In this document: positions 35,715 to 56,015 of the stretch, in pieces
Numbering within the stretch: position 1 is the stretch's first letter
Layout: each line of letters opens with the position of its first letter
DNA from: Dehalococcoides sp. JdFR-56
Lineage (GTDB): Bacteria; Chloroflexota; Dehalococcoidia; Dehalococcoidales; RBG-16-60-22
Assembly: GCA_002011495.1 (NCBI GenBank)
Contig: MTNR01000072.1
Location: 7,371 to 71,370, forward strand
DNA length: 64,000 nucleotides
Reading direction: 5' to 3'
The notes under the pieces: model-generated
Database searches by the model: none
Seen by the model: the letters and a program-made list of their open reading frames with translations, nothing else
What the model was told of the DNA's origin: nothing
Position numbers and translations under genes: made by a program

Positions 35715-36563
35715 ATGGATATCTCGCAACTAATAAATAATCGACGTTACCCATTACTGTGGCAATTTTTGAAGTACCAGGTAGATATGCAATTTGCGGA
35801 TCTCCGTTGCCTCTTACAGCTTCCCAAAAGCGATCTAAATGCAGGATGCAACTTTGCTGCCGCTGCGGTACTTTTCAACATAATTGCAGGTTTCTCTGTC
35901 TGTTTCTACAATGCTTCCCTACAAGGGCTTAAATCACGAAAGGAACGAGGCGGTAGGTTCAAAGGACTTCTGCGAAAATATTACCCATGGGCAAATGAGC
36001 CTGTTGGGAAAGATACGGGTGTCAAAGTACTTTATGAAGCCGCCAGAAATCCTCTCGCACATAGCCTTGGAGTTTATGAGCCTGGAGCGGAGTGGCGGGT
36101 CATGCTTGGGAAGGATGCACTAACCGCATCACAAATTGAAACAATGGAAAATAGTAAGTCTCGACCAGTGTGGCTGCCTCCGACTATATCTAAGACGGAA
36201 TTAGCCTTTCAAATTTACATTCCCACTCTGTATTGGGGCGTACATTGCTTGGTGCGACGCCTGCTAAACGAGACAAAGCAGGCAGAGAGCGCAGAGAAAT
36301 TCCATATGGAGCTAAGTATAGAGTATGACCTCATAGCCGTGGAATCAAAGGTTTCACAACTGCAGACTTTTCTAAATGGCTCACCCAGCAAGCTTGGTCC
36401 TGAGTATGCAGAGAAGGTCAATGAGATCAATGTCATACTAGATAAGTTGGTGACACTTAGGAACATGACTCAGGAGCAAAACGAGAAAGTTACATGTTTG
36501 CAGCGTTCTTATCAAAGAATTCGTGATCAGATAGCCAAGGCAAAACTGTTCCCGGGTATGTGA
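35715..36563 (+). CDS. Hypothetical protein with a HEPN-like Rx4H motif and a C-terminal coiled coil
   Basis: 282-aa AT-rich ORF. It has LYEAARNPLAHSLG (R-x4-H) and a heptad-like C-terminal ~80 aa. Confidence 0.6.
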   Translation: MDISQLINNRRYPLLWQFLKYQVDMQFADLRCLLQLPKSDLNAGCNFAAAAVLFNIIAGFSVCFYNASLQGLKSRKERGGRFKGLLRKYYPWANEPVGKDTGVKVLYEAARNPLAHSLGVYEPGAEWRVMLGKDALTASQIETMENSKSRPVWLPPTISKTELAFQIYIPTLYWGVHCLVRRLLNETKQAESAEKFHMELSIEYDLIAVESKVSQLQTFLNGSPSKLGPEYAEKVNEINVILDKLVTLRNMTQEQNEKVTCLQRSYQRIRDQIAKAKLFPGM

Positions 36564-36762: not shown

Positions 36763-37425
36763 ATGGACATAGCTGAGGCTAGAAAAGTCGGCAGGACATT
36801 CCTTGTAAGCTTGGATGAATTTCTGGCAGCCAACTACCAAAGGCTCAAGTGTCGGGAAATCTGCGACATATACTATCAGTTTTGGCACGATTTAAAGTAT
36901 TTTAGAGGCACTGCAACTGGTTTCACAGGCCTTTCGGAGTTCCTCATCTTTAGATTTCTGTACCACCAACTGGGCGGCGGTTTCGAGAGGAAGGATATTA
37001 GCCGCGATTTGAGTGAATTTGTAAGACGTGAGATTAGAATGGGCCAAGGTATACCTGTGCAATTAGGAGAGACAAAACGTACTCGGCCTGACATAGTTCT
37101 TTATCACGAAGAAAGACTCGTGGCTGTTGTCCAAATCAAACTGTTTGTCACTGGTGGATTAAAGGAAATAGAAAGGGAAATGAGAACCCTAAAGGGGCTC
37201 AAGCAGGCTAATCCTAACAATTTCCGCGCTCTGCTAGTAATCTATTCTCACTGTCCACCAGAAGGTAAGGTGCCGCTGGAACTTAGGAAGCATAAAGACA
37301 CGAATACTTGGTTCGACTACGTAATTCTCGAAGACAATGAGGAATTGCTGCAACAAAGAGTGAATAGTGCTCTCTCATTGGATCGCCTAGGATTGTACCG
37401 GCCCGACTCGCACAGTGGCCCATAG
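36763..37425 (+). CDS. Hypothetical protein, possible PD-(D/E)xK-like nuclease fold
   Basis: A GGAGAGGAG RBS lies 8 nt upstream. The sequence ...LSEFLIF...RPDIVLYHEERLVAVVQIKLF resembles the E...PD...(E/Q)xK arrangement. The family is not recognised. Confidence 0.55.
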   Translation: MDIAEARKVGRTFLVSLDEFLAANYQRLKCREICDIYYQFWHDLKYFRGTATGFTGLSEFLIFRFLYHQLGGGFERKDISRDLSEFVRREIRMGQGIPVQLGETKRTRPDIVLYHEERLVAVVQIKLFVTGGLKEIEREMRTLKGLKQANPNNFRALLVIYSHCPPEGKVPLELRKHKDTNTWFDYVILEDNEELLQQRVNSALSLDRLGLYRPDSHSGP

Positions 37426-40941: not shown

Positions 40942-42135
40942 TCACAGCCCGATGACATTGAGTAGTATGCTGACTAATATTCCACCAATTAAGACTTCTA
41001 TAGCCCACTTCTTTGTTCGGCGCGTCGCATTATCAATGATGATCTTATTATTTCTGTAGCCCCTCACGACCGAGTCCCAAAAGAGACTAATTGAGATGAC
41101 TGCCATGCTAGCAAGGATTATGCAAAGAATTGCGGACCGTAGTGAGGGGATCACGCGGGCACTCACAGCATCCGCTTGAATTGCTCCTAGCCAGCCGATT
41201 TGCCATAGATACCACCCTAGCCAGGTGTCAAAGCCCAGTATTAGAAAAGACACAATGCCTCCTATTCTCGTCAGCAAAGGCAGGCCACCCAGCTCTTCCT
41301 TTGAAACCCTAACTGTCTCGGTGCCGAAATTTGTAGCTAGGTCGAGACTTGCTGCAACCAGAATCTTCGATACACCCCTTTTCGAGTCTGCGCCATAAAC
41401 GTTTCTTATAGATGAGTTGGCCGCTTGTGTCTGGAAGAACGCAGGAATGTTTCGTAGGGTCGTATCCACGAATTCTCTTAAAATTGCGATGTCGTTCTTT
41501 TCCCTAAATTGCCTGTAGTTCCATAGGACCCATGCATAGTACACAGCATCATCGGAACGAACCTTGTTTTTCGATACTGCTTTAAAGCAATAGTCGACTA
41601 CTTCCTTAAGCTTCTCATCGTTTCCCAGCTTTTCAAAGAGGAGCGCTGTAAATAAGAGATTTTTGGGGTCGTTGAAAACTGCAGATTCGGTGACTTCCTT
41701 CTCAAGCTGCTTAAGTACCTCGTTAAACGGGGGGACTTTGTTCCTTATGTCGGCCAATGATAGCAAGATGATCGCCGTATAAGCTATATTGTTGAATAGG
41801 GATCTATTTACAACATGTTTGCTAACAATGTCAGCCAACTGTTTTGCTTCAACGTTAACGCTAAGCCTCTTGTACCGTTTCAGACAGTAGGAGGCAAGCA
41901 CCGCTGAAGTAAGCTCCCTGTCAACAAACCTGCCAAATTTCTCCTGATTTATCTTTTGGTCAATCCAAGCGTTCATCCAGTCTACCAGGTTATCTGTCCC
42001 GGGACTTTCCACACCGTTCTTGAGAAGAAAGAAGAGATATATGGCGAACCCGAGCGGGTCAGTCGCCAAATCGGTTTGCGTTTCTTCCTCTATCCAGCTT
42101 CTCAGTTTCTCCCTCAGTACCTCTACCGAATCCAT
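40942..42135 (-). CDS. pAgo-associated membrane protein: ~290-aa helical N-terminal domain + 3 C-terminal TM helices (candidate effector)
   Basis: Third gene of the pAgo operon, with a 10-nt gap. TM segments are GGIVSFLILGFDTWLGWYLWQIGWLGAI, AILCIILASMAVISISLFW and WAIEVLIGGILVSILLNVIGL. No enzymatic motif was recognised. Confidence 0.7.
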   Translation of the reverse strand: MDSVEVLREKLRSWIEEETQTDLATDPLGFAIYLFFLLKNGVESPGTDNLVDWMNAWIDQKINQEKFGRFVDRELTSAVLASYCLKRYKRLSVNVEAKQLADIVSKHVVNRSLFNNIAYTAIILLSLADIRNKVPPFNEVLKQLEKEVTESAVFNDPKNLLFTALLFEKLGNDEKLKEVVDYCFKAVSKNKVRSDDAVYYAWVLWNYRQFREKNDIAILREFVDTTLRNIPAFFQTQAANSSIRNVYGADSKRGVSKILVAASLDLATNFGTETVRVSKEELGGLPLLTRIGGIVSFLILGFDTWLGWYLWQIGWLGAIQADAVSARVIPSLRSAILCIILASMAVISISLFWDSVVRGYRNNKIIIDNATRRTKKWAIEVLIGGILVSILLNVIGL

Positions 42136-42145
42136 ATGACTACCT

Positions 42146-43453
42146 TTAAATAAACCAAGGTCTTCGATTCAAGATCTCATTCACCTCAGGACTTGTCATA
42201 CCCTGCCATTCTTGTGCAGATATCGCCGCTGTAAGATAGGCAAGCTCCTGGGAGAATTGTAGGGTTATCGGCTGACGTACTAAAGGCGTCGCCGTTGCCC
42301 AGTCCAACTTGGTAAGGCCGAGTACTTGGAGTGCCAAGTCGTCCGCATCAAGAAACTTGACCGGGTGCTGTTCCGATCTGATATGTAGCAACTTTGGTGT
42401 CCCCATTCTTCTCCCGGCGATATCGGTATATCCTGTCGTAGAAAGCAGAACCTCATTTTCATTCCAATAAACGTAGTAACCCCTGGGGAAGCTCCCATCA
42501 TCAACCTTCAGGTCGTACATCCTGAACGGATGTGAGTCGTCAATGGATACAAAGGCTACATTGTAGTCCTTGACACGCTCGTCCAAGAACCGCTTGACGC
42601 CATCAATCTCCTCTCTTGCAAATTTTTTGTAGCAGTGTATTACTATGCTGCGAGGGGCTTGCCCTTTTTCAGCTTCAAATTTTGTTATCGCGCTGGAGAG
42701 CAACTCATGAAGTCTTTCTGCCTTCTGTTCCTTCTCGTACAGTTTCGCCGTCCCTTCAAAGAACATCCACCGACCGTAGCTATCGAACACGTTAACGTAT
42801 CCTACGAACTGGGGCAGTTCGCCGGCTCTGTGTTTATATGACACACAATTAGAGATAGACAGGCCAAGAATCATGTCTGTGTTCTTCATTTCGCTTTCTA
42901 GGACCCACGGGATGCCACCGGCCTTTGAGAAGATGGCTGAAGCTAGATTAAGATAGGACCAGCGTAGGTTCTCAAATGTCGACTCGGTGATCATTTGACT
43001 TGTGAACCCGTGAGACGCAAGCATAGCTTTAAGACGATAATACGGGGTTCTTGCAAAATACCTGCTGGTCTTGGGCACGTAGGCTAAAACGGTATCCACT
43101 TTCCTTGGGTCTTCGGCGGCAACCAACTCGTCAGCCTTCTTCTCGTATTCGTCGACGTCAAGTGATTCGGTTATGTATTCGCCTACTATCTCAATATTGC
43201 ACCTAAAAAACTGAGGCATTCCGCCGGGAAAAATCGGCGTGCCCACATTCAGTTCCCTAATAAGCGCATCTACCTGTTGCTTATGTGCTTCTGGGCAAAT
43301 CAGGACCATCCTCACCTTGGAGAGCCCCTTGTCGTACGGCCCAAACTGCCTCAGTCCCCAATACACCTGGGGATGGACACATGAAGTATCAACCTTGTCA
43401 AATAGCAAGCTGGGCTCGCTATCAATTCTATTTCCCTCAAGATACGTCGGCAT
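42146..43453 (-). CDS. Short prokaryotic Argonaute (MID + PIWI only), catalytically inactive
   Basis: 435 aa. The MID 5'-end pocket pattern is Y-x3-K...Q...K (YYRLK, TSQMI, FSKAGG). PIWI hallmarks are AIFSKAGGIPWVL, GTPKLLHI and a C-terminal PWFI. DEDX positions are degenerate (ILGLSIS for GxDV; IHCYKK for HRDG). Confidence 0.8.
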   Translation of the reverse strand: MPTYLEGNRIDSEPSLLFDKVDTSCVHPQVYWGLRQFGPYDKGLSKVRMVLICPEAHKQQVDALIRELNVGTPIFPGGMPQFFRCNIEIVGEYITESLDVDEYEKKADELVAAEDPRKVDTVLAYVPKTSRYFARTPYYRLKAMLASHGFTSQMITESTFENLRWSYLNLASAIFSKAGGIPWVLESEMKNTDMILGLSISNCVSYKHRAGELPQFVGYVNVFDSYGRWMFFEGTAKLYEKEQKAERLHELLSSAITKFEAEKGQAPRSIVIHCYKKFAREEIDGVKRFLDERVKDYNVAFVSIDDSHPFRMYDLKVDDGSFPRGYYVYWNENEVLLSTTGYTDIAGRRMGTPKLLHIRSEQHPVKFLDADDLALQVLGLTKLDWATATPLVRQPITLQFSQELAYLTAAISAQEWQGMTSPEVNEILNRRPWFI

Positions 43454-43457
43454 TGCC

Positions 43458-44300
43458 TTACACCCTTATCACAACAGGTTCACTGTCGAGACTTACTTTG
43501 AACTTACCAAATCTCAGTGGAAAGACATTTCTTCGGAGCTCTGTTATAATTGCTAACGTTCTCATAAGTCTATCTCTGGACGCTGTGAAACTGTCTAAAA
43601 ATGATTGTTTCCTCTGAAGGGCAATCACATTAAATCGTCGGCTCAAGTGCTCTAGCACTCGCTGTATGAGTTCTGGCTTGGGCTCTGGCAAAACATTTTC
43701 GGCAGGTACGTCCTCTTGTTTGAAGTCACGATAGTTCTTCACTTTGCATAGTGCCTGCCCGGAATCCGATATCCGGGTCTCGATCAGGTAACCATCAATC
43801 CTGTACCTTTCCTCCCTCCTGTAGTTAACAGAGAAGTCAGACAAGTCGGCCGGGCTCATGCCTTTCTCTAAGAGCTGACCGATAGTGCAATTGCTCCTGA
43901 AGATCAAATGTGGATCGACACATAATAATATCCCATTGGTGAGGTTGACGACTCGAAACTCGAATCCGTCATAGATGCAAAAGATGTCTTTGCAAGGCTG
44001 ATCCAATTCATCTTGCTCGCGGTACACTATATAACGTCCTTTTAAGCAATAACCGGCTTCTTTGAGTCCCAAGACAAACTGTTTCGTTACCAGCCTCATC
44101 AACATAGGCAGGGTTACCTCAATTGGCTGGAGTCCTTCCTTAGATTCGTGAGTAAAGTACTTCCCGTCATAATAGATCGTCTTTGCCTTCTCGTGCGGCG
44201 AGGGTGGGCCGTCCAGTTGATACAACATGCCTTGTTGGACTGTTAGGCCAAAGAGATTGCCAAATCTGTCGTACATTCTAAAGATATCTGGGCCTTGCAT
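43458..44300 (-). CDS. Stand-alone APAZ-like (Argonaute N/L1/L2-like) protein with no fused effector domain
   Basis: 280 aa, and first gene of the operon. Its stop lies 4 nt before the pAgo ATG. The mixed beta/alpha sequence (FEFRVVNLTNGILLCVDPHLIF...) and its position match APAZ partners of short pAgos. It is too short to carry a SIR2, TIR or Mrr module. Confidence 0.55.
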   Translation of the reverse strand: MQGPDIFRMYDRFGNLFGLTVQQGMLYQLDGPPSPHEKAKTIYYDGKYFTHESKEGLQPIEVTLPMLMRLVTKQFVLGLKEAGYCLKGRYIVYREQDELDQPCKDIFCIYDGFEFRVVNLTNGILLCVDPHLIFRSNCTIGQLLEKGMSPADLSDFSVNYRREERYRIDGYLIETRISDSGQALCKVKNYRDFKQEDVPAENVLPEPKPELIQRVLEHLSRRFNVIALQRKQSFLDSFTASRDRLMRTLAIITELRRNVFPLRFGKFKVSLDSEPVVIRV

Positions 44301-45048: not shown

Positions 45049-46143
45049 ATGTACAAGATGATGACCGACAAAATAGCGGCCGATGTACGAGTGCAGTTGT
45101 TACTGCCTGCCAATCTTCACTTCCCTGAGCAACGCGGCATTGTAGAAAGCGTCAGGTTAGCCGATACTGAGGATTTTCAAATAACACTGAAGCACTCCGA
45201 CGGACCACAAGGAGACCTGCTCAAGAAATGGCGTAAGCGACGCCGTGATTTTGCAGGTGATAGTGACTACGAGGCACTTATCAACCATCTTGAGCGAACC
45301 CTGATCGTTCCACAGGTAGAAATCGTCTTGAAAAAACGGACTTTCGTAAAAGAGGAGCTGAGTATTCGAGACGGCAGGATCTTGATTCGAGGGGACGACC
45401 CTAAAAAGGCCAATTGGTTCCAGATAGCTAAGGAAATCGTCATTGTGTATGACTCATTGATTAATCATCTGTTCACGATGTTCGCCAACAAACCTTGGAA
45501 GAGGTTGGAATCTCTTAGCCTCAGCCCCAGTGGTCCGTTTGCAAATCTTTCGGATTTCGCACGCTGCTTACAATCTTGGAACGTCGAGTTCAGAGAAGTG
45601 TCTGGAGACGAGTGGGTCGGAGGCTTTTCCTTCCTCTCTGAGGCAGAGTCTTTGGAACGAGTGAGTTTGCAAATAGCAAGTGCTGATATCGGTTCTGAAC
45701 AACTACAAACTATCGCTGAAGGCCTGAAGTCGCTGATTGGCAACAAAGCGAGTTTGCCAACTGGATGGGAGTACCTGTACCTTGCATCTCTTCACCTCAA
45801 TAGAGGTGACGTCAGAAACACAATTATTGATCTAGACATAGCGGTCGATTATCTAGTTAAACGATACATCCGAGATAGAGTAAGCATATGCGAGGAAGCC
45901 ATTAATATAATCTTTGAAAAATCTTCCACAGGCAATCTGCTCACTATCGCGAAAATGCTGTCAAGTAGTGATAGTGAATCTGCCATGTGGGACGCATTTG
46001 AGAAACTCCACGGTTTCAGAAATGAAGTGTTACACAATTACCGAAGGCGTTTTGGTGCCTCGGAGCTGAAGATAATTGAAAGGTCACAAAACGACATATT
46101 ATCGCTATTGAGAGATCTTGCTGTAAGTTCAAGCACAGGGTGA
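45049..46143 (+). CDS. Hypothetical protein with a C-terminal HEPN-like domain (Rx4H)
   Basis: 364 aa. The C-terminal helical region has FEKLHGFRNEVLHNYRR (R-x4-H). The start may be ATG 45058, which has better spacing to AGAGGTG. Confidence 0.6.
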   Translation: MYKMMTDKIAADVRVQLLLPANLHFPEQRGIVESVRLADTEDFQITLKHSDGPQGDLLKKWRKRRRDFAGDSDYEALINHLERTLIVPQVEIVLKKRTFVKEELSIRDGRILIRGDDPKKANWFQIAKEIVIVYDSLINHLFTMFANKPWKRLESLSLSPSGPFANLSDFARCLQSWNVEFREVSGDEWVGGFSFLSEAESLERVSLQIASADIGSEQLQTIAEGLKSLIGNKASLPTGWEYLYLASLHLNRGDVRNTIIDLDIAVDYLVKRYIRDRVSICEEAINIIFEKSSTGNLLTIAKMLSSSDSESAMWDAFEKLHGFRNEVLHNYRRRFGASELKIIERSQNDILSLLRDLAVSSSTG

Positions 46144-46411
46144 GCTGTTAGAATTGAGTAGTCTGTGAGTGTAGCCAACTCGCAGATGCTTCAGCAATTT
46201 GACGGTTTGTGACCCGGGCTGGGTGCGTGGCGGACTTAGGTACACCTGACCCGAAGTGGCAAATTTCTTCGGATACAGTAGCCTTTTCCCTCAGTCGTAG
46301 CAAATTCGCCCAGCAACACCATAAGAAGAGAGTTTGACAAAATTGTTATAGGAAACAGGAGCTTGGCAGACTATAGGTGGATGCCTGAGCGCATATAAGG
46401 GGAGGCAGGCA

Positions 46412-46555
46412 ATGGGGTTACGAAGTTCTCTCTACAAGATAGCTAGAATAATGGGCGACGTTAACGCCATCCAGAAGGGTAAGGTCGGCAAAAGGGTAGC
46501 AAGGCGAGTGTGCGGCAAGGTTACTGGCAGAACGCTCCAGAAGTTAATAAAGTAA
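46412..46555 (+). CDS. Candidate 47-aa highly basic small protein
   Basis: Below the track cutoff. AAGGGGAGG lies 7 nt upstream of ATG 46412. It translates MGLRSSLYKIARIMGDVNAIQKGKVGKRVARRVCGKVTGRTLQKLIK. Confidence 0.35.
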   Translation: MGLRSSLYKIARIMGDVNAIQKGKVGKRVARRVCGKVTGRTLQKLIK

Positions 46556-46599
46556 CGTGCAGAATCATCATATCAGCACACGGCGCCGGGGAAGGGTGA

Positions 46600-48354
46600 C
46601 TAACACCAACCTAGTCTGGAAACTGCGTTAGCGTATTCAACAGCAATTTCCTCAAAGCGCGAGTAATCTCCGCCAAAGAGGCCTTGTCTTAAGGGTTCCC
46701 ATGACTCTTTTCGCTGTTTCGCTTCAGCTAATAGGTCTTTTAAGGGATTCTGCCCCTCGCTATTCCCTAATTTATAGCCAAACCTTCCGATTGGTCCCCA
46801 TATGCGTTTTCGTTCTTTGTTGAACAAATCAGCGTAAACCAAGGCAAACAGACATTCGAACCGGTCAAATGTTCTTTCATAAGTAACGTCGTCAGCCAAG
46901 AACTCCCGGAGCGGATTACGAAGTACGCGAGCCAGATGCTCACTAACCGGTGTATAAAAGTTTTGTCCCAGTATCTGGTTCATCGCTTTTTGGTCAGCTA
47001 TTTCCGCGGGGACTAGTTTCAAGGCGAGAGGCCTTCTTTCCCCATTATCGTTATACATTGGACCAGCCAGTAAGGCTGACAGAGTATCATATTTGTCTGC
47101 GGCTACCGCTGCAAGTCCCGATGTGTAGAGCAGCAAGAGGGCAGGATAGAGTCTGAGATTGAGCCAGACAACTAGTCCACCCTTACCGCCTTGCGGGTTT
47201 CCGATTCTCTCCAGGACTTTCACCCATAGTTTATGGTGAGCCGAGTTTCCCCAGTAACATCCTGTTGCCATTAGTGAGACAAGTGTTTCCAAGTTAGCCT
47301 CGTATTTGGCCAGGCGCTTCTTTAATTCTTCAACACTGAAGCCAACTCCCTCCACAGGAAAGTTGGTTTCAGATAGGATTCCATATGCTCTTTCTGTCTC
47401 TTCCATTACCAAGTCGTGCAAACGAATCTGATAACGCTCGTCCGTGAGATACCGTTTGGCACGGGCGATGGCCGCCTTGGTTGATAGCGGATGTGGCCGG
47501 GCATATTCTTCAAGCGCCATTACCTTTTCTGTTAGGTCACGAAAGAAGGTGTCTGCATCCTGTATCTCAATACGCTGGGCGCGGCGCAGTGTCATAATGC
47601 GCTGGGCGGAAGGGCTATCCTCGCCAAGAGACGTCCAGTAAGTAGTGAACCTGTGGCTCTGGCACCTCTCCAGTGCAGCCCGGAGCGCCGTATCCCACTC
47701 AGCAGACCATCCGCAAATGATAAGTCCAAACTCGTCGAAAATCCGGTCAAGGAGCGCATTCATTCTGTCATCAAACTGCGCCAGCTCCTCCGGGGTGTTC
47801 TTAATACGGGTATCCAAATAATCACCATGCACCTTTATTATGGTACACGACGTATGTACAATAGGAATAGCCCCCTCCGCAGCGTCGGGTGTGCTGATAA
47901 CAGTGGGCGTTACGCCCACATTCTCAAGTGCCGTTTCCAGCAGGCGATCAAAATTTGTGGTAATAATGACTCGGATATAGCCGTTGGCCACAAGCTCAGC
48001 AATGGCTTTATGGGCCTCAGTCGGGGTTTTAAGACCTTGCTCCCGCTCTTCTTCGTTCGGCTCGAAGTAGGTTCTCAATAAGCTGGCTCTTTCCGCCGGG
48101 GAACCCGCGGCTATTTCAAGTAATCTGGCATAGTCAGGATATGTGCCGAATTTGCTCTGATACCAATCCACAGGGTCAGCCTCACAATCTTCGCCCTGGA
48201 GATGAGCCACTTTACGTATCAGGTCAAGGATGACCTCCCATCCTGTAGGAATACCTGCTGCCCTAGATACCCCTGAACCTAGGAGCAGAGCATAAACGCC
48301 TTTCCCGCCATGTATTGAGAAAGCCAATGAAATTATCGGGTCAATCAGGGTCAT
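46600..48354 (-). CDS. SIR2-family (SIR2_2-like) protein with a ~320-aa C-terminal domain of unknown function
   Basis: The N-terminus has LLLGSGVSRAAGIPTGWE, TTNFDRLLE and IIKVHGD, so the SIR2-type Gly-rich loop, Asn and His are present. It starts 7 nt after the upstream RM gene stop. Confidence 0.8.
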   Translation of the reverse strand: MTLIDPIISLAFSIHGGKGVYALLLGSGVSRAAGIPTGWEVILDLIRKVAHLQGEDCEADPVDWYQSKFGTYPDYARLLEIAAGSPAERASLLRTYFEPNEEEREQGLKTPTEAHKAIAELVANGYIRVIITTNFDRLLETALENVGVTPTVISTPDAAEGAIPIVHTSCTIIKVHGDYLDTRIKNTPEELAQFDDRMNALLDRIFDEFGLIICGWSAEWDTALRAALERCQSHRFTTYWTSLGEDSPSAQRIMTLRRAQRIEIQDADTFFRDLTEKVMALEEYARPHPLSTKAAIARAKRYLTDERYQIRLHDLVMEETERAYGILSETNFPVEGVGFSVEELKKRLAKYEANLETLVSLMATGCYWGNSAHHKLWVKVLERIGNPQGGKGGLVVWLNLRLYPALLLLYTSGLAAVAADKYDTLSALLAGPMYNDNGERRPLALKLVPAEIADQKAMNQILGQNFYTPVSEHLARVLRNPLREFLADDVTYERTFDRFECLFALVYADLFNKERKRIWGPIGRFGYKLGNSEGQNPLKDLLAEAKQRKESWEPLRQGLFGGDYSRFEEIAVEYANAVSRLGWC

Positions 48355-48361
48355 TTCTCTC

Positions 48362-51300
48362 TTACTCCATCGGCCATCCCGGTATCAGCTCGTCAATCTC
48401 TTCCATCAGCCTAATCGTCTTTTTAATAGCAACCACTATCTTCTGATAATGCTGGGCTTCATCTAGAGTCAGGTTGCGCCCCTTGCGGTCTTTGAGCCAC
48501 TTCTGGCAGACCTGGTAGCCGCCGATGTGGAAGTTCCAGACCTCCGGCGGCACGCCCTCAAAATACTGTGCCTTGTTTATATAGACCCGCTGGTTATTCT
48601 CATCATAGGTTACCTTTTCAACCGTGTTGGTGCCGGTTACCGGGTATCTGGTAATCAGGTTATTAAGCACAGGGGATTCCATCAGGTGCAGGGATACCAG
48701 CTCAGCACCTTTTGCCACCAGTTTACTAAACAGCTCTTTATCCGAAGTCAGCGGCAGGCGCGGGAAGTCTATCTTCAAGAACTCGGCATAGCGGGTACGG
48801 TAGGTGGGCGAGTGGAAGACAGCATAGGCATAGTGGAAGATGTCCTCCGGGCCGAAGGTCTCGGTAAGGTCTCCCCTACCATCCTCAACAGGCTCCAGCC
48901 CCAGCTTCTTCGAGAAAGCTTTGATGAAGTCCGGCTTCAGGTTGGGACGGCGTTTGCCTCCTTCAAACTGCATCTCGCCCTCAGCAGCGTAAAGATAGAG
49001 CGGAAAGTTGACATTCCCTCCGCGGTAGAACAAGTTGAAGTCTTGTATTGAATCGGAGCAATATATAATGTCCCATAGCTCTGGCCCCACCACTTGCCCC
49101 GCTCTTCCTATACAGAGAGCCAGGTTCTCTCCCGCCAGCATGTGGCGCATGACCTCGAGGCGGGGCATACAGTGGAATCCCCTTGAGTGCCCAGTATAGT
49201 AGGTGTACCTGGTGTCAAACGGACGGTAGAGTATGGGAACCACCTTTTCTGCTTTCAAGCCTGAATCTTTAAGGTCTTTTTGCGCCAGGGCAACTTTCCA
49301 GTCACGAACGTCGCTGCCAAGATTGTATCTCTCCCTAGCTTCCTCGGTAGGAAGAGAGGCAAACTCAGTGACGACAGTCTGTACCTCTGCCTGAGACCAG
49401 CGTATAGCTAGCTCATCTCTGGCCGTCACAATGCCAACACTGTTAACAGGGAAGATATCGGTTATCTTCCAGCCTTTCTCATATTCGCTCAACAGACCTT
49501 GCTCAACGGGCACAAAGAGGTAAAACGGACTGCTCGGCGTAAGCTCTAACCACTCAGTCTTATCTATGTCTGTTTCCAGCAAGGTGTGATACTTTGTGCC
49601 TTCCCGAGGGTTAGGCCACTCACCGCGCTTTCCCCACAGCTCGGCATAGTGGACTGTGGCGGGGCCGGTTCTGCCTGGTTCCTTAATGAAAATACCAATA
49701 GCTACCCCTTGCTGGATATCAAAAACATTTTCATCTTTGCTACCATCTGGAGCAACCTCCTTTTTCTTCACGTTGCCGTGGAGATTGAGGATGTAAATGT
49801 CAGTAAAGCTATTCATCAGGGACTGGCGCATGCCGCGGAAGGTGGGGTTATCCAGGTAAGAATGATTGGTAATAAAGGCCAGGATACCCTGTCCTGTAAG
49901 CTCTATCCGCCACTGTCCAAAACGAATGAATTTAACATAGTCATCCTGAAGCCATTTCGGGTTTTTCTCCTTCAATAACTGGTTATCAACAATTTTGTAA
50001 TCTTCTATAAGCCTACCGATAAAGGTCTTTACACGCTTTTTTATTGGGGAAGTTGCTTTTATTTCTACCGGTGACCAGTAGACTTTTTCCTCGCCATCTT
50101 TAAGCGTCATGATTTTAAGTTCCAAGTGGTCAACGTATGTCTGCCCTGGTTGAATTTCCATTTCAACTTCGCTTCTATTAACTGAATGTCCGGAATAAGG
50201 AGGATTTCCCAGCACCACCATTATTGGCTTTTCTTTCTTAATTTGGGCAGCAGCGTTGGCTTCCTCCACGATGTACTCGTTGAAACCGGCCAGTTGCTCA
50301 GATTTTTTGAATGCCTCCTCAAGCGTATTGGTGAGGTAGATTCCCAGACGCTGCTCGCCCTGGAAATGGTAGCCCGTTTCCTGAAGCAGAAGCTCTAGCT
50401 TGAGGTGGGCGACGGCATAGGGAGCCATCAAAAGCTCAAAACCGAAAAGACGCGGCAGAAGCTTCTCTTCTACATACTCGCTCCACCAGCTCTGCTGCCC
50501 TTGGCTGATGATGGTCTGGTGAATCTCATTTATCACCATGTACAGGAATGTGGCAGTGCCCGCCGCCGGGTCAAGAATAAGTGTCTTCTCATCGGCTAGG
50601 CCCTGCGGGCGCTTGAAGCGCGTTTTCAAAAGATGGTCAATAGACCGCACGATGTAGGAGACCACCGGTTCCGGAGTATAGTAAACGCCGCGCATCTCCC
50701 GTATCTTCGGGTCGTACTCCTTGAGGAAAGTCTCGTAGAAATGGACTACTGCGTCCTCTTTGGCAGTGCGCTTGCCAAAATCTTTGCGGATTGCCTCCAT
50801 ATCAGCTTTGGCAAGGAGCTGCACCAAGTCATCAACCAGCCAGGCAATGCGATCATCTAATTCGAATGCGATATGATAGAACAGTTTCCGCAAAAAGGGA
50901 TTAGTTTTACGCACCAAGTAGGCAGCGCTCTGGCGGGTGAAGGATGTACCACCGTCGGAAGCGCAGCGTGCAGCAAAATACCCGTAGGCGATAGTCTGAG
51001 CATACATATCGGCGAACTGCTCCACCGAGAGGTCGGGGATAAGGTTGTCACGGAAGGCAGACAGCTGCACGTGCAGACTCTCGCTCTCTGGCTCTTTCTG
51101 GAAAGCGGCAACGATGAAGCTGCGAATCATCTGAGCTAGGCGTGCCATGCGCAGCGCAAGCTCCTTGGGCGTGCCTATTCCCTCAGCCCTGTGTGCAAGA
51201 AATTCGCCCAACAGCTCACCAACAGCCTTCTCCCCATCTTTGTCACGCTTAATTTTGCCTTCCTTGGTCAATCTACCTAGAGTTGCCGAAAGACGATACG

Positions 51301-51661
51301 CTCCATTGACGTACCACCGAAACTCCAGGTAGTTAGTGAGGACCAAGTTGGGCAGGGAAGACAAGTAGCGTTGAAATCTTTCTCCGTCTGACCCCTTTCC
51401 TTGCTCAATCTCGTCAAGAGGCTTACCGACATCCTTGGCCTCCAAGTAGCCAACCGTGGTGCTATCCTTAGTAATAACAAAATCAGGTGCGCCGCACTCG
51501 ATACGACTCGGCAAGCTGGTTGCGGATATCCCTTCGCCCAAAGACTCGAGCAGTACTTTCAACGACGGATAATGGGAGCCCTCGCTAGCATAACCCGCTG
51601 CCAGAGTCGTTTGAATACTTTTCAAATAAGCAGCAAATACACTAAGTTCACCCGGATTCAT
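48362..51661 (-). CDS. Type IIG/IIL-like single-chain restriction-modification enzyme (PD-ExK nuclease + gamma-class N6-adenine MTase + C-terminal specificity domain)
   Basis: 1099 aa. N-terminus has GAPDFVI...GYLEAKDVG (PD...ExK). MTase motif I is LDPAAGTATFL and motif IV is LGNPPYSG. The C-terminal FHIGGYQVCQKWLKDRKGRNL is typical of type-ISP-like specificity domains. Confidence 0.8.
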   Translation of the reverse strand: MNPGELSVFAAYLKSIQTTLAAGYASEGSHYPSLKVLLESLGEGISATSLPSRIECGAPDFVITKDSTTVGYLEAKDVGKPLDEIEQGKGSDGERFQRYLSSLPNLVLTNYLEFRWYVNGAYRLSATLGRLTKEGKIKRDKDGEKAVGELLGEFLAHRAEGIGTPKELALRMARLAQMIRSFIVAAFQKEPESESLHVQLSAFRDNLIPDLSVEQFADMYAQTIAYGYFAARCASDGGTSFTRQSAAYLVRKTNPFLRKLFYHIAFELDDRIAWLVDDLVQLLAKADMEAIRKDFGKRTAKEDAVVHFYETFLKEYDPKIREMRGVYYTPEPVVSYIVRSIDHLLKTRFKRPQGLADEKTLILDPAAGTATFLYMVINEIHQTIISQGQQSWWSEYVEEKLLPRLFGFELLMAPYAVAHLKLELLLQETGYHFQGEQRLGIYLTNTLEEAFKKSEQLAGFNEYIVEEANAAAQIKKEKPIMVVLGNPPYSGHSVNRSEVEMEIQPGQTYVDHLELKIMTLKDGEEKVYWSPVEIKATSPIKKRVKTFIGRLIEDYKIVDNQLLKEKNPKWLQDDYVKFIRFGQWRIELTGQGILAFITNHSYLDNPTFRGMRQSLMNSFTDIYILNLHGNVKKKEVAPDGSKDENVFDIQQGVAIGIFIKEPGRTGPATVHYAELWGKRGEWPNPREGTKYHTLLETDIDKTEWLELTPSSPFYLFVPVEQGLLSEYEKGWKITDIFPVNSVGIVTARDELAIRWSQAEVQTVVTEFASLPTEEARERYNLGSDVRDWKVALAQKDLKDSGLKAEKVVPILYRPFDTRYTYYTGHSRGFHCMPRLEVMRHMLAGENLALCIGRAGQVVGPELWDIIYCSDSIQDFNLFYRGGNVNFPLYLYAAEGEMQFEGGKRRPNLKPDFIKAFSKKLGLEPVEDGRGDLTETFGPEDIFHYAYAVFHSPTYRTRYAEFLKIDFPRLPLTSDKELFSKLVAKGAELVSLHLMESPVLNNLITRYPVTGTNTVEKVTYDENNQRVYINKAQYFEGVPPEVWNFHIGGYQVCQKWLKDRKGRNLTLDEAQHYQKIVVAIKKTIRLMEEIDELIPGWPME

Positions 51662-51910
51662 CTTGACCCCGAAATTGTCTTATGTTAATCGCATTATACT
51701 ATATGAGTATGAGAATGAGTAGCACCACAAGGTGACACAAATCAAGAGCATCTGCAGCTATGAAGGTCACTTAGGCGATTACCCAATCATTGCGCGATAA
51801 CAGGTACGACACGAACAATTTACTCCAACCTTAGAGCACGAGAAATGCGATAGTTTGTTGGCTTTCTGTTGGATTCCACATATTTGCTATAATTAAGTCG
51901 GGGGCAAGAC

Positions 51911-53164
51911 ATGCGAGTTCTAATCCTTTCAGCCACTATAGACAGGATGCAAAAATTTGGTAATCCACCCTATCATCCCCCGTATGACGTACACGTGGAC
52001 ACAGACGACCTGAACAGAGAAGATTTCAATTTTAGTGTGTTTGACTACGATGTCTCCATTGTTCATATTTGTGAGGGCCCCTACCACACGATAGGCTACT
52101 ATGCTAACCTTCCTAAATTACTTCGAGATTCAGCACTGGCCCTCGAACATGGCCATTCCGTCATTTGCCTGCCCCATTCGAGAAACTTTATTTCGAAGAG
52201 GCTTGACGAGAGAGGAATGTCAGCCTACGAATGGTTAGAGAAATTCGGAGTTCAGCTTCAAGACAACGAGGGCGAAAATATCAAACCTACAGGAGCTGGC
52301 CGTGCACAAGTAATTCAAGAATATCTCAATCATGCATTTAAGTACTATCAAATAGTGACTGAGTTCCCACCCACTTCAAGCAACAAATTGGCCGTGGTCG
52401 ATGATACTGAAATCGTGGTTGGGTTAGAATGCCAAGTAGGAAAAGGAAGTCTGGTTATTCTTCCACCACCCACATTTCATGAGAGCGAGTATTACTTGAT
52501 GATGTCACGAATGTTAGCCGTTGCACGTCGCTATTATGACCGTTCACAGCGCTACCTGGCTATAGGCGACGTTCCCGATTGGGTCAGCAATTACTTAGTG
52601 CCACGCGCTAAAGTTTTAGAAGAGCAAATTAGCAAGCTGTCAGAAGAAAAGGCGAAATATGACAAGTTAGCTTACGTTCTTTATGGAACAGGGGATGAGT
52701 TGGTGACTAGTGTTACTCTGCTACTCGACGAGTTAGGCCTTGAGGTTCAGCCACAACCACGTGGTGCCAATATCGACCTGAAAGCGAAGCATCCCGGACT
52801 GAATATTGGGTTTGCGATCGAGGTCACGGGGACAAAAGATATCATTCGCAAAGATAGTAATAAAATCGCGCAAGCCCGGCAGTATCTGAGCGAGCGGGCA
52901 GGGACTCCCGAAGAGAATGACAGACTTATAATAGTTGCCAACAGCCAGTATCACCTCGATCCGAAGGAAAGAAACAACGCAGGCTTTAGCCCAGAGGTTG
53001 TGAGACTACTCGGTAACACCGGAGTTCTAATGATTACTTCTTTGCAGCTTTATGAACAGTGGAAGGCAGTCCACGAGGGACACAAGTCATCTGATGACCT
53101 CATTCGGGAGTTGCACAGTAGTTCAGGCCTGTTTGGAAAGTCCTCACAGCCTGAGGTACTGTAG
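51911..53164 (+). CDS. Hypothetical protein; the C-terminal part is possibly restriction-endonuclease-like
   Basis: 417-aa AT-rich ORF with a central coiled coil (LEEQISKLSEEKAKYDKL). The C-terminus has ELGLEV...ANIDLKAK...FAIEVTGTKD...LIIVAN, resembling a D...ExK core. Confidence 0.5.
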   Translation: MRVLILSATIDRMQKFGNPPYHPPYDVHVDTDDLNREDFNFSVFDYDVSIVHICEGPYHTIGYYANLPKLLRDSALALEHGHSVICLPHSRNFISKRLDERGMSAYEWLEKFGVQLQDNEGENIKPTGAGRAQVIQEYLNHAFKYYQIVTEFPPTSSNKLAVVDDTEIVVGLECQVGKGSLVILPPPTFHESEYYLMMSRMLAVARRYYDRSQRYLAIGDVPDWVSNYLVPRAKVLEEQISKLSEEKAKYDKLAYVLYGTGDELVTSVTLLLDELGLEVQPQPRGANIDLKAKHPGLNIGFAIEVTGTKDIIRKDSNKIAQARQYLSERAGTPEENDRLIIVANSQYHLDPKERNNAGFSPEVVRLLGNTGVLMITSLQLYEQWKAVHEGHKSSDDLIRELHSSSGLFGKSSQPEVL

Positions 53165-54453: not shown

Positions 54454-54885
54454 CTAGAGGAGATGTGGTTGCACTTCTAGCAAGAAATCGGTACCACTAA
54501 TACATCGAATCCCAAGGGACTCTGCTACTTTTCTAGCTCGCCCTTCATCCACCACATAGGTTCCGTTTCGATAGTAAGCAAGAACGATGCCTTGAATGTC
54601 GGGGTCTTCTAGAAGTTTCTCTTGCACACGTAGCCTCATAAACATCCTACGTTCATCATTTGTCACAAAGTCGGTGGGTTTACCACTGTTCAGCCAATTC
54701 TTCGTCTCAGCTGGGGCACCAGAGCTGTTAACCTGCTTCGCTACCTTGTAAGGAACGACCAGCCATTTTCCGGGGCGCTCTGGCATATCTCGGAGACCTC
54801 TCCCATTTGGTCTTCGCTCTATTTCAATTAGAGAGGAAGAATCAAATACATAACATGGAGGAGGCGAACCCGATAACATCTTCAT
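54454..54885 (-). CDS. PIN-like domain protein (DUF4411-like), probable toxin partner
   Basis: 143 aa with an N-terminal YVFDSSSLIEI (PIN-type acidic residue) and a C-terminal IVLAYYRNGTYVVDEGRARKVAESLGIRCI. It lies 14 nt downstream of the HTH-ImmA/IrrE gene. Confidence 0.55.
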   Translation of the reverse strand: MKMLSGSPPPCYVFDSSSLIEIERRPNGRGLRDMPERPGKWLVVPYKVAKQVNSSGAPAETKNWLNSGKPTDFVTNDERRMFMRLRVQEKLLEDPDIQGIVLAYYRNGTYVVDEGRARKVAESLGIRCISGTDFLLEVQPHLL

Positions 54886-54899
54886 TCGGATGGTTTTAC

Positions 54900-56015
54900 T
54901 TACTCTGAGCGAGCACTCCTAGCCTGCCGCACCACTTCCAATACGTCCCTCAAATCCAATCCGAAGTAGCGAGCCAATTTGCTTGCGGATAAATGTCCGG
55001 CTGAATAAGCGCTCAGAGCTAATGAGACAAAATCTTCGCCGAGCTGCCGACGCCATTTGGGACCCCGAGGAGCCCGAAAACGGGTCGGCCTTTTTTCCCA
55101 GTCAGCAATACGCGAGTCTGTAGTTCCCTCAGGAATTAGGCCTAGTTCTTCTAGTCTTCTTCCCGCTGCCTCCAGACTCACCCCGAAGTGCCTGGCAAGC
55201 CTGCCCAGAGCTTGGTCAGTAGGCAATGAACCAGGTGGCCCGATGATTTTTAGGAAGAGGTCCCTCATAGCGCGGGCTGGCATGAGAAAGACGGTAGCAA
55301 AACGGTTGGCAAAGCGTTCCTCAGGAATTTCCAACATGTACGCACAGGCTGTAGGGGAATCATTGCAGAGAAGGTGAACATACTCGTGTGCTATGGTAAA
55401 GGAGCGACGGCCAGCATTGTTGCGCCCATTGATTAGCATGCAGGGACCGTATTCTTCGTGCCACCAAGATATACCGGAAAGCTCTATCGGGGAGACATCC
55501 GGTATAGGAAGTACGAAGACCCTTACTCCTTGGCTTGCAATGAGATTGCGAACATCTCTAATAGGATTTTCTCCTAGGCCAAGTCTCCTTCTTTCTCTTT
55601 CTGCAAGCTCCTCGGGAGCACACTCACAAGAGGACCTTTTGATGAGAATCTCACGTTTTCTCTGAAGCGCTTCTTCTAGTTCAAACTCGGCCCGGCAGAG
55701 TTCCTCAAAACGTACAATAACTTTCCGAACCGCATGAGGCAAATCCTTTAGCACCCGGTGATGTTTTAACCTAAAATTGAGACGTTCAGGTAGTGCAGGT
55801 AGTGTTCTCAAGAAGTAGTCTGTACTCCGCTGATATAACTCTGCCAAATCCCATAATGCTTCCAACGGTGGTTCGGAAACACCCCTCTCCCACTCTTCCA
55901 GTTTTTTCTCGTCAATTCTTAGAGTCTCGGCAACTTCCTTGCGCCCTAGCCCAAGGCTCTCCCTTGCTTTGCTAAGCTGATCTGGAATCACTATAATCCT
56001 ATCTGCTTCCGGCAC
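54900..56015 (-). CDS. XRE-type HTH + ImmA/IrrE-family zinc metallopeptidase fusion
   Basis: The N-terminal HTH reads LGLGRKEVAETLRIDEKKLEEWERG. The central region has FTIAHEYVHLL (HExxH) in an ImmA/IrrE-like context. Confidence 0.8.
   Translation of the reverse strand: MPEADRIIVIPDQLSKARESLGLGRKEVAETLRIDEKKLEEWERGVSEPPLEALWDLAELYQRSTDYFLRTLPALPERLNFRLKHHRVLKDLPHAVRKVIVRFEELCRAEFELEEALQRKREILIKRSSCECAPEELAERERRRLGLGENPIRDVRNLIASQGVRVFVLPIPDVSPIELSGISWWHEEYGPCMLINGRNNAGRRSFTIAHEYVHLLCNDSPTACAYMLEIPEERFANRFATVFLMPARAMRDLFLKIIGPPGSLPTDQALGRLARHFGVSLEAAGRRLEELGLIPEGTTDSRIADWEKRPTRFRAPRGPKWRRQLGEDFVSLALSAYSAGHLSASKLARYFGLDLRDVLEVVRQARSARSE

Follow-up and report, generated by a model that had tools for sequence, protein, structure and literature searches.

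A Type IIG restriction-modification gene and a SIR2-family gene in a tight operon layout: an unnamed, lineage-restricted arrangement of two catalogued defence families in a Dehalococcoidia genome

Does a gene for a restriction enzyme, followed after only seven nucleotides by a gene of the SIR2 family, form a defence system with it, or do two independent genes share one operon? The question is raised by a locus in a 64,000-nucleotide stretch of DNA (hereafter the window) from Dehalococcoides sp. JdFR-56 (assembly GCA_002011495.1, contig MTNR01000072.1, positions 7,371 to 71,370 of the forward strand), in which a single-chain restriction-modification (RM) enzyme of Type IIG and a SIR2-domain protein are encoded one behind the other on the minus strand. 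A preliminary description, made from the letters of the sequence, had suggested that the two genes might be a fixed pair that links the sensing of restriction to the depletion of nicotinamide adenine dinucleotide (NAD+). Our analysis, which drew on about 170 related loci for comparison, favours, with a probability of roughly 60%, a different reading, namely two autonomous anti-phage genes that are co-transcribed within a defence island of low guanine-cytosine (GC) content in a Dehalococcoidia genome. The pair is an unnamed, lineage-restricted arrangement and not a system, and both of its parts belong to families that are already catalogued.

The RM gene (48362..51661, minus strand, ATG start) encodes a 1099-residue protein, classed as DrdV-like Type IIG/IIL from its open reading frame (ORF), its PADLOC match and its closest structures. 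The SIR2-family gene (46600..48354, minus strand, ATG start) encodes a 584-residue protein, placed in the PADLOC candidate family PDC-S65 from its ORF, PADLOC and the Pfam SIR2_2 model. Both ORFs and the gap of 7 nucleotides between them were found at the coordinates claimed for them, and the tight operon layout is confirmed; chance is not an issue here, since the ORFs are long and intact and the family matches very strong. The junction reads ...ATGGAGTAA-GAGAGAA-ATG, where TAA is the stop codon of the RM gene and GAGAGAA (48355..48361, minus strand) is the whole spacer between this stop and the SIR2 ATG, and the final codons of the RM gene, upstream of the SIR2 start, include a GGAG. The SIR2 gene is probably translationally coupled to the RM gene. 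A consensus scan of 46000-52000 for promoters and terminators gave counts equal to those of shuffled controls, with no excess, and because it put no promoter- or terminator-like site at the RM-SIR2 junction, the two genes are most naturally read as co-transcribed. The region upstream of the operon (51662..51910, minus strand), which is divergent from an ORF at 51911..53164 and was delimited from sequence only, contains a TATAAT at 51698-51693, 31 nucleotides ahead of the RM ATG; this motif may be the promoter, and the consensus scan did not call one at that position.

The RM gene is predicted to encode a complete single-chain DrdV-like Type IIG/IIL enzyme. The PADLOC model REase_MTase_IIG (PDLC03610) covers the whole of the 1099-residue protein (E 4.5e-296). 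This one polypeptide contains the nuclease, the methyltransferase and the specificity domain, and its catalytic motifs are intact. The PD-(D/E)xK nuclease motif, APDFVI...LEAKD, occupies residues 58-77 (51431..51490, minus strand) and was located by alignment conservation, its D60, E74 and K76 being invariant in 119 of 119 aligned homologues. It is followed by a gamma-class N6-adenine methyltransferase domain at residues 301-494 (50180..50761, minus strand; Pfam N6_Mtase, E 4.6e-11), whose motif I, DPAAGTATFL (DPxxGTxTF), and motif IV, GNPPY, do not vary across 120 sequences, and by a target-recognition domain at residues 735-1088 (48398..49459, minus strand; Pfam Type_ISP_C, PF18135, E 2.1e-101). 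In the alignment with the 119 homologues, A58-P59-D60, E74-A75-K76, D364-P365..G368-T369..T371-F372 and G485-N486-P487-P488-Y489 are invariant or nearly so. Pfam and conservation thus bear out what had been proposed for this protein, that is, a PD-(D/E)xK nuclease, a gamma-class N6-adenine methyltransferase and a specificity domain like that of Type ISP enzymes. An NCBI protein that is 100% identical to the product is annotated from a Dehalococcoidia metagenome-assembled genome.

The closest solved relatives are the Type IIL enzyme DrdV (7LO5, E 4e-45) and, after it, the methyltransferase and target-recognition modules of LlaBIII (E 2e-42) and LlaGI, which the window enzyme resembles in its layout of N-terminal nuclease, methyltransferase and Type_ISP_C-type domain. 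LlaGI and LlaBIII themselves are Type ISP enzymes of about 1400-1600 residues with a helicase-like ATPase/translocase between nuclease and methyltransferase, whereas the window enzyme has 1099 residues, its LlaBIII match is limited to the methyltransferase and target-recognition region, and no helicase-like ATPase domain was detected in it (no ResIII, helicase or SNF2 match in Pfam). Because the helicase domain was not detected, we assign the enzyme to Type IIG/IIL and not to Type ISP, a class that its shorter chain also speaks against. One feature sets it apart from most DrdV-like homologues: an insertion of about 40-50 residues just past motif IV, made up of scattered stretches within residues ~498-549 (window 49999-50170), is missing from more than 70% of the 119 homologues. 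Compared with the homologue that is itself paired with a SIR2 gene in locus L081, the most diverged part of the enzyme is residues 751-900 (32-46% identity), in the specificity region.

The SIR2 protein, in turn, matches PDC-S65 (PDLC05061) over residues 3-579 of 584 (E 1e-223). PADLOC carries this family as a single-gene "phage defence candidate"; its architecture of about 580 residues is shared by the window protein and no structural difference was seen, but its definition includes no Type IIG gene, whereas the window member stands in an operon with one. That the SIR2 protein is already catalogued as a stand-alone PDC-S65 speaks against a fixed pairing. The family is large, with more than 6000 database clusters at E <= 1e-5 against the whole SIR2 protein, and 46 plasmid records hold members, mostly annotated "SIR2 family protein"; phage genomes gave only two weak matches, at 24% identity and extending over roughly the N-terminal half to 60% of the protein. 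The literature searched contained nothing on PDC-S65 or on this RM-SIR2 pair, and neither there nor in PADLOC does the pair have a named system, as the preliminary description had supposed.

The SIR2 domain, a predicted NADase, spans approximately residues 18-284 (47503..48303, minus strand) and was delimited by profile, Foldseek and conservation, Pfam recognising only the SIR2_2 core at residues 129-247. In alignments of 18 and of 36 sequences, G26-S27-G28, T132-T133-N134-F135-D136, K174, G177 and D178 are invariant, and H176 is present in the window protein, so that the GxG NAD-binding loop and the Asn (N134), Asp (D136) and His are all intact and the signature motifs claimed earlier are indeed there. 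By sequence the domain is closest to the Sir2 chain of SPARSA (8in8/8jkz; profile E 1e-17, query residues 22-296 only), and PADLOC adds a match to Aga_SIR2 (E 1e-33); by predicted fold, Foldseek matched SPARSA (E 2e-10), ThsA, DSR2 and KomC, in a range of E 2e-10 to 1e-6. Of 79 genome homologues (from loci L001-L080, described below), 18 that are scattered over the tree have Asn in place of the catalytic His of the KVHGD motif, equivalent to H176 (around window 47827-47829); among the 15 members associated with Type I RM genes, one has this Asn. The structure of KomC H146N (PDB 9xvc) carries an engineered His-to-Asn change at the equivalent position.

What follows the SIR2 domain had not been recognised in the preliminary description. 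These roughly 300 residues (285-584; 46603..47502, minus strand) form a real, family-specific domain, with a confident, all-helical AlphaFold model (predicted local distance difference test score 89.9, predicted template-modelling score 0.91). Searched in isolation against the PDB, the model gave no significant match (best E 0.14, template-modelling score < 0.3), and none was found in the viral structure library BFVD; with no PDB match better than this and no viral match, its identification as an APAZ, SLOG or DSR2-like sensor was rejected. A search of 1.84 billion representative proteins returned 2663 matches (50%-identity representatives), and in the best 150 of these 2663 the domain either forms the C-terminus of a protein of about 580 residues built in the same way or belongs to a shorter one, probably a fragment; fusion to other effectors was considered and dropped, since the same best 150 contain no swapped N-terminal domain. 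By analogy with other SIR2 defence proteins, the domain is presumed to be a sensor or regulatory part.

None of the known SIR2 systems compared here takes the protein in. DSR1 and DSR2 have a similar layout, in which one polypeptide carries a SIR2 NADase at its N-terminus and a large helical sensor at its C-terminus, and the SIR2 domain is matched (Foldseek E ~1e-8). However, they have about 1000 residues against 584, no DSR model is among the PADLOC matches of the SIR2 protein, and it is the SIR2 domain alone that superposes on DSR2, the root-mean-square deviation over the whole chain being about 20 Å. SPARSA shares the SIR2 domain and the overall length (584-587 residues), but the resemblance extends only to about residue 296, the C-terminal half does not look like APAZ, and a prokaryotic Argonaute (pAgo) occurs neither in the operon nor in homologous loci. 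Membership of Thoeris was rejected as well: the hidden Markov model of ThsA covers residues 109-179 only (E 1e-6), the helical C-terminal domain does not resemble SLOG, and no match to TIR or ThsB was found in the genes directly flanking the pair. SIR2/HerA, finally, needs HerA and uses a different SIR2 family, whereas no HerA match was found among the flanking window ORFs scanned.

Is the pairing fixed? To answer this in the forward direction, we used 80 loci (L001-L080) on one-genome-per-species contigs, with SIR2 homologues of 44-55% identity from Archaea and many bacterial phyla. A Type IIG homologue adjoins the SIR2 gene in none of the 80; one locus (L034) has such a homologue about 7.5 kb downstream of SIR2, two further loci have weak partial matches only, and the neighbours of the SIR2 homologues are mostly unrelated to one another. 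The reverse set comprised 80 metagenome loci (L091-L170) with Type IIG homologues of 50-69% identity, 64 of them with at least 600 bp of downstream sequence, and again a SIR2 homologue was found in none of the 80. The genes are therefore not co-conserved (0/80 and 0/80) beyond a narrow SIR2 clade, which is the very outcome that the preliminary description had named as speaking against its idea of a fixed pair. From the two zero counts we infer that neither gene needs the other and that the two act independently.

Within that clade, of about 80% SIR2 identity, the pair does recur with the same 7-nucleotide junction, in four of the eight lineages at 70-80% identity that were examined (the window, P0002, P0003 and P0005). 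In P0002 (L081-L084) the pair has other genomic surroundings than in the window, with a pst/PhoU operon on one side and a large surface-protein gene on the other, its Type IIG protein being 60% and its SIR2 protein 79% identical to those of the window. The spacing was read from the sequence in L081 and L084, from gene calls in P0003 (L171) and from tblastn coordinates in P0005 (L175). A conserved, co-oriented ORF of 294-296 residues without family match follows SIR2 in the P0002 pair (L081:9928-10818, L084:3649-4533) and is not present in the window. Elsewhere in the group other genes precede SIR2: a 79-residue ORF and a gene of unknown family in P0001 (SIR2 80%), an unknown-family gene with a transmembrane tail in P0004 (78%), and another unknown gene in P0008 (70%). 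In P0007 (L087:1-7927), where SIR2 is 77% identical, it belongs to a co-oriented four-gene cluster with an Eco57I/DrmMI-like Type IIG gene (at least 1370 residues), a radical-SAM SPL-like gene (282 residues) and a PDC-M30A-like gene (404 residues). Neighbour-joining trees, which are star-like and carry no support values and were used only to show that members which are paired or RM-associated do not group in a single tight clade, place the paired Type IIG proteins scattered among unpaired ones, and the SIR2 tree suggests that the pairing may be ancestral to the clade of about 80% identity and lost in one sub-branch.

The Type IIG side offers a possible explanation for the adjacency. A co-oriented ORF lies no more than 150 nucleotides downstream of the Type IIG stop in 46 of 74 loci of the reverse set (L091-L170), often starting at -29 to +16 nucleotides, and clustering divides these ORFs into at least 28 unrelated groups (the lists were compiled mechanically and some members may not be genes). 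Family scans recognised among the occupants DUF5677 (4 members), mad8-like matches (2 members), an ApeA-type HEPN protein, PDC-S58, AriA/PtuA/AbiL-like ABC ATPases, a HerA-like ATPase, a PIN domain and a Tdp/PLD-like protein, together with ordinary housekeeping neighbours. We read the position behind these Type IIG genes as a cargo slot with variable contents, of which the SIR2 gene is just one among many; this slot would account for the adjacency of SIR2 and RM genes in the window.

On the SIR2 side, the family has a recurrent association with methylation-based systems of several kinds. Looking within 8 kb for Type I RM genes and at co-oriented flanking genes for other systems, we found such a neighbour in about 19 of 79 genome loci (15 Type I RM, two other Type IIG, one Hma and one weak Type III-like), so that the association is recurrent and not obligate. 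The Type I layout is typically hsdM-hsdS-SIR2-(x)-hsdR, the SIR2 start often overlapping the hsdS stop by 4 or 8 nucleotides. These clusters were checked by Pfam (Methylase_S in 7 members, HsdM_N in 5, HSDR_N in 6 and T1RH-like_C in 6, plus a direct table for one HsdR), and the SIR2 members associated with them are spread over the SIR2 neighbour-joining tree. Other neighbours are Type IIG enzymes of the models PDLC03623 (L033) and PDLC03620 (L026), the Eco57I/DrmMI-like Type IIG enzyme of L087, a PglX/MmeI-like enzyme with a HEPN protein (L089/L090), a DUF1156 methyltransferase with HmaC (L004), a weak Type III-like match (L016) and Avs4 (L027). For about three quarters of the SIR2 homologues, the stretches examined show no RM-like gene nearby, and the SIR2 protein must therefore be able to work alone.

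Building on the observed gene structures, family memberships, neighbourhood statistics and predicted folds, we thus favour two autonomous genes that would provide a layered defence. The RM enzyme would methylate adenine in its recognition site and cut unmethylated DNA through its N-terminal PD-(D/E)xK nuclease, both within one polypeptide. The SIR2 protein, by analogy with DSR1/DSR2, ThsA, SIR2-HerA and SPARSA, would most likely stay inactive until its own C-terminal domain detects a cue of infection, whereupon it would hydrolyse NAD+ and abort the infection. Its gene would have landed in the downstream cargo slot of the RM gene in one lineage, where it would use RM transcription and, probably, translational coupling. 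Restriction would then come first and NAD+ depletion serve as a backup, neither protein needing the other. A comparable case is SIR2/HerA (GAO_19) of Streptococcus thermophilus, which is inserted between or beside RM genes in a defence island with no demonstrated coupling (PMC11514479).

Several points weigh against this reading. The NADase activity and the defence role of PDC-S65 are both deduced, experimental data having been found for no member of the family. The junction of 7 nucleotides is identical in four diverged lineages and in at least two genomic contexts, with RM proteins at 59-60% identity, and selection may be keeping the genes together. Furthermore, the recurrent neighbourhood of methylation systems around the SIR2 family fits a functional link as well as it fits hitch-hiking in islands.

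Such a functional link is the core of the alternative that survives best, although we regard it as unlikely. Here SIR2 would be a guardian like PrrC, held latent by the co-encoded methylation-based restriction enzyme or monitoring it, and would deplete NAD+ when a phage anti-restriction factor disables that enzyme; this is essentially the link between restriction sensing and NAD+ proposed in the preliminary description. The precedent is PrrC, which is embedded in the EcoprrI Type I RM locus and activated when T4 Stp inhibits EcoprrI, and which resembles the window in that a gene for a suicide-type effector is embedded in, or coupled to, an RM operon (PMC12707154, PMC3632139). The tight coupling, with its 7-nucleotide gap kept in four lineages, favours such a guardian, as do the SIR2 homologues embedded in Type I operons (hsdM-hsdS-SIR2-hsdR, with -4/-8 nucleotide overlaps) in 15 of 79 loci across the SIR2 tree and those that adjoin four other Type IIG families, a PglX-like gene or Hma. 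However, PrrC consists of an ABC ATPase and a HEPN anticodon nuclease, its RM association is described as conserved in diverse bacteria and its regulation by the RM complex has been shown, whereas the association of the window SIR2 with RM genes is non-obligate. An effector of this kind would be conserved inside or beside its RM operon; what we found is 0 of 80 in either direction and, for any methylation-based system, about 19 of 79, leaving about three quarters of the homologues without an RM-like neighbour. Moreover, the RM partners are structurally unrelated, HsdS/HsdR complexes on the one hand and several single-chain families on the other, which makes one conserved physical interface unlikely, and the SIR2 C-terminal domain is conserved whatever the partner. 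RM genes are also the commonest core of defence islands, so that adjacency is expected for any defence gene, and the slot behind the Type IIG family holds many unrelated genes.

The guardian idea can also be put more broadly, in a form that we hold to be improbable: PDC-S65 SIR2 proteins could be general guardians of methylation-based immunity, of which the window pair would be one instance. What their helical domain would sense is either the restriction enzymes (Type I, several Type IIG, PglX-like, Hma) as such or some effect that these systems have in common when restriction fails or is blocked, and NAD+ depletion would follow. A guardian role, if true, would extend the PrrC/PARIS principle to NAD+ depletion.

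It is very unlikely that the SIR2 protein is instead no NADase effector at all and acts as a protein deacylase or ADP-ribosyltransferase, with the RM enzyme or some other host or phage protein as its target. Weak matches to SIR2_2 and CobB-like models point that way, and the replacement of the catalytic His by Asn in 18 of 79 members hints that the chemistry may vary across the family. The NCBIfam deacylase matches, however, fall far short of the required score (21.6 bits against 320), anti-phage SIR2 domains (SPARSA, ThsA, DSR2, KomC) account for all of the best matches in sequence and structure, and the gene lies in a defence island and belongs to a defence-candidate family of PADLOC.

That island is a low-GC stretch of about 22 kb (~36000-58000) with 44-51% GC, compared with about 58% (54-60%) in its flanks. 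Close to the pair it holds a three-gene short-pAgo operon (40942-44300, minus strand), made up of a 280-residue protein (43458..44300, minus strand) whose match to a long PADLOC pAgo model (E 1e-13) is confined to the APAZ-like middle of that model, a short pAgo of 435 residues (42146..43453, minus strand; PDLC02436, E 2e-89) and a 397-residue protein with C-terminal transmembrane helices and no family match (40942..42135, minus strand); the layout resembles that of the systems that combine pAgo, Aga1 and a membrane effector. On the other side of the pair, 54454-56015 (minus strand) contains a gene with HTH_3 and Peptidase_M78 domains (ImmA/IrrE, RmrA-like, E 2e-30), followed by a 143-residue ORF with a weak PDC-S70 match, which may be another defence or regulatory module of the island. 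No Pfam or PADLOC match was found for the island ORFs at 35715-36563, 36763-37425, 45049-46143 and 51911-53164, and there are no tRNA genes in the window.

The short pAgo invites the thought that SIR2 might serve it in trans as the effector of a split SPARSA-like system, an idea that is already disfavoured and that we consider the least credible of all, for although the SIR2 domain is closest to pAgo-associated SIR2 (Aga_SIR2 and SPARSA Sir2, as above) and the same strand carries, at a distance of 2.3 kb, the short pAgo and an APAZ-like partner that lacks an effector, an opposite-strand gene (45049-46143) stands in between, the C-terminal domain is not APAZ-like (the SPARSA Sir2 matches cover the SIR2 part alone and the isolated model has no PDB match), the pAgo operon has a transmembrane candidate effector of its own, and no pAgo-like neighbour recurs at the RM-SIR2 pairs of L081 and L082 or at the 80 SIR2-homologue loci.

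Read as two autonomous genes, the locus itself is unremarkable, a defence-island operon whose parts are both catalogued. What it offers beyond itself lies with the families concerned: the slot behind DrdV-like Type IIG genes seems a promising place to look for new defence genes, the RM neighbourhood of PDC-S65 and its natural His-to-Asn variants are further leads, and PDC-S65, with a confidently predicted C-terminal fold that has no match in the PDB or among viral structures, is a good candidate for finding a new phage-sensing module.

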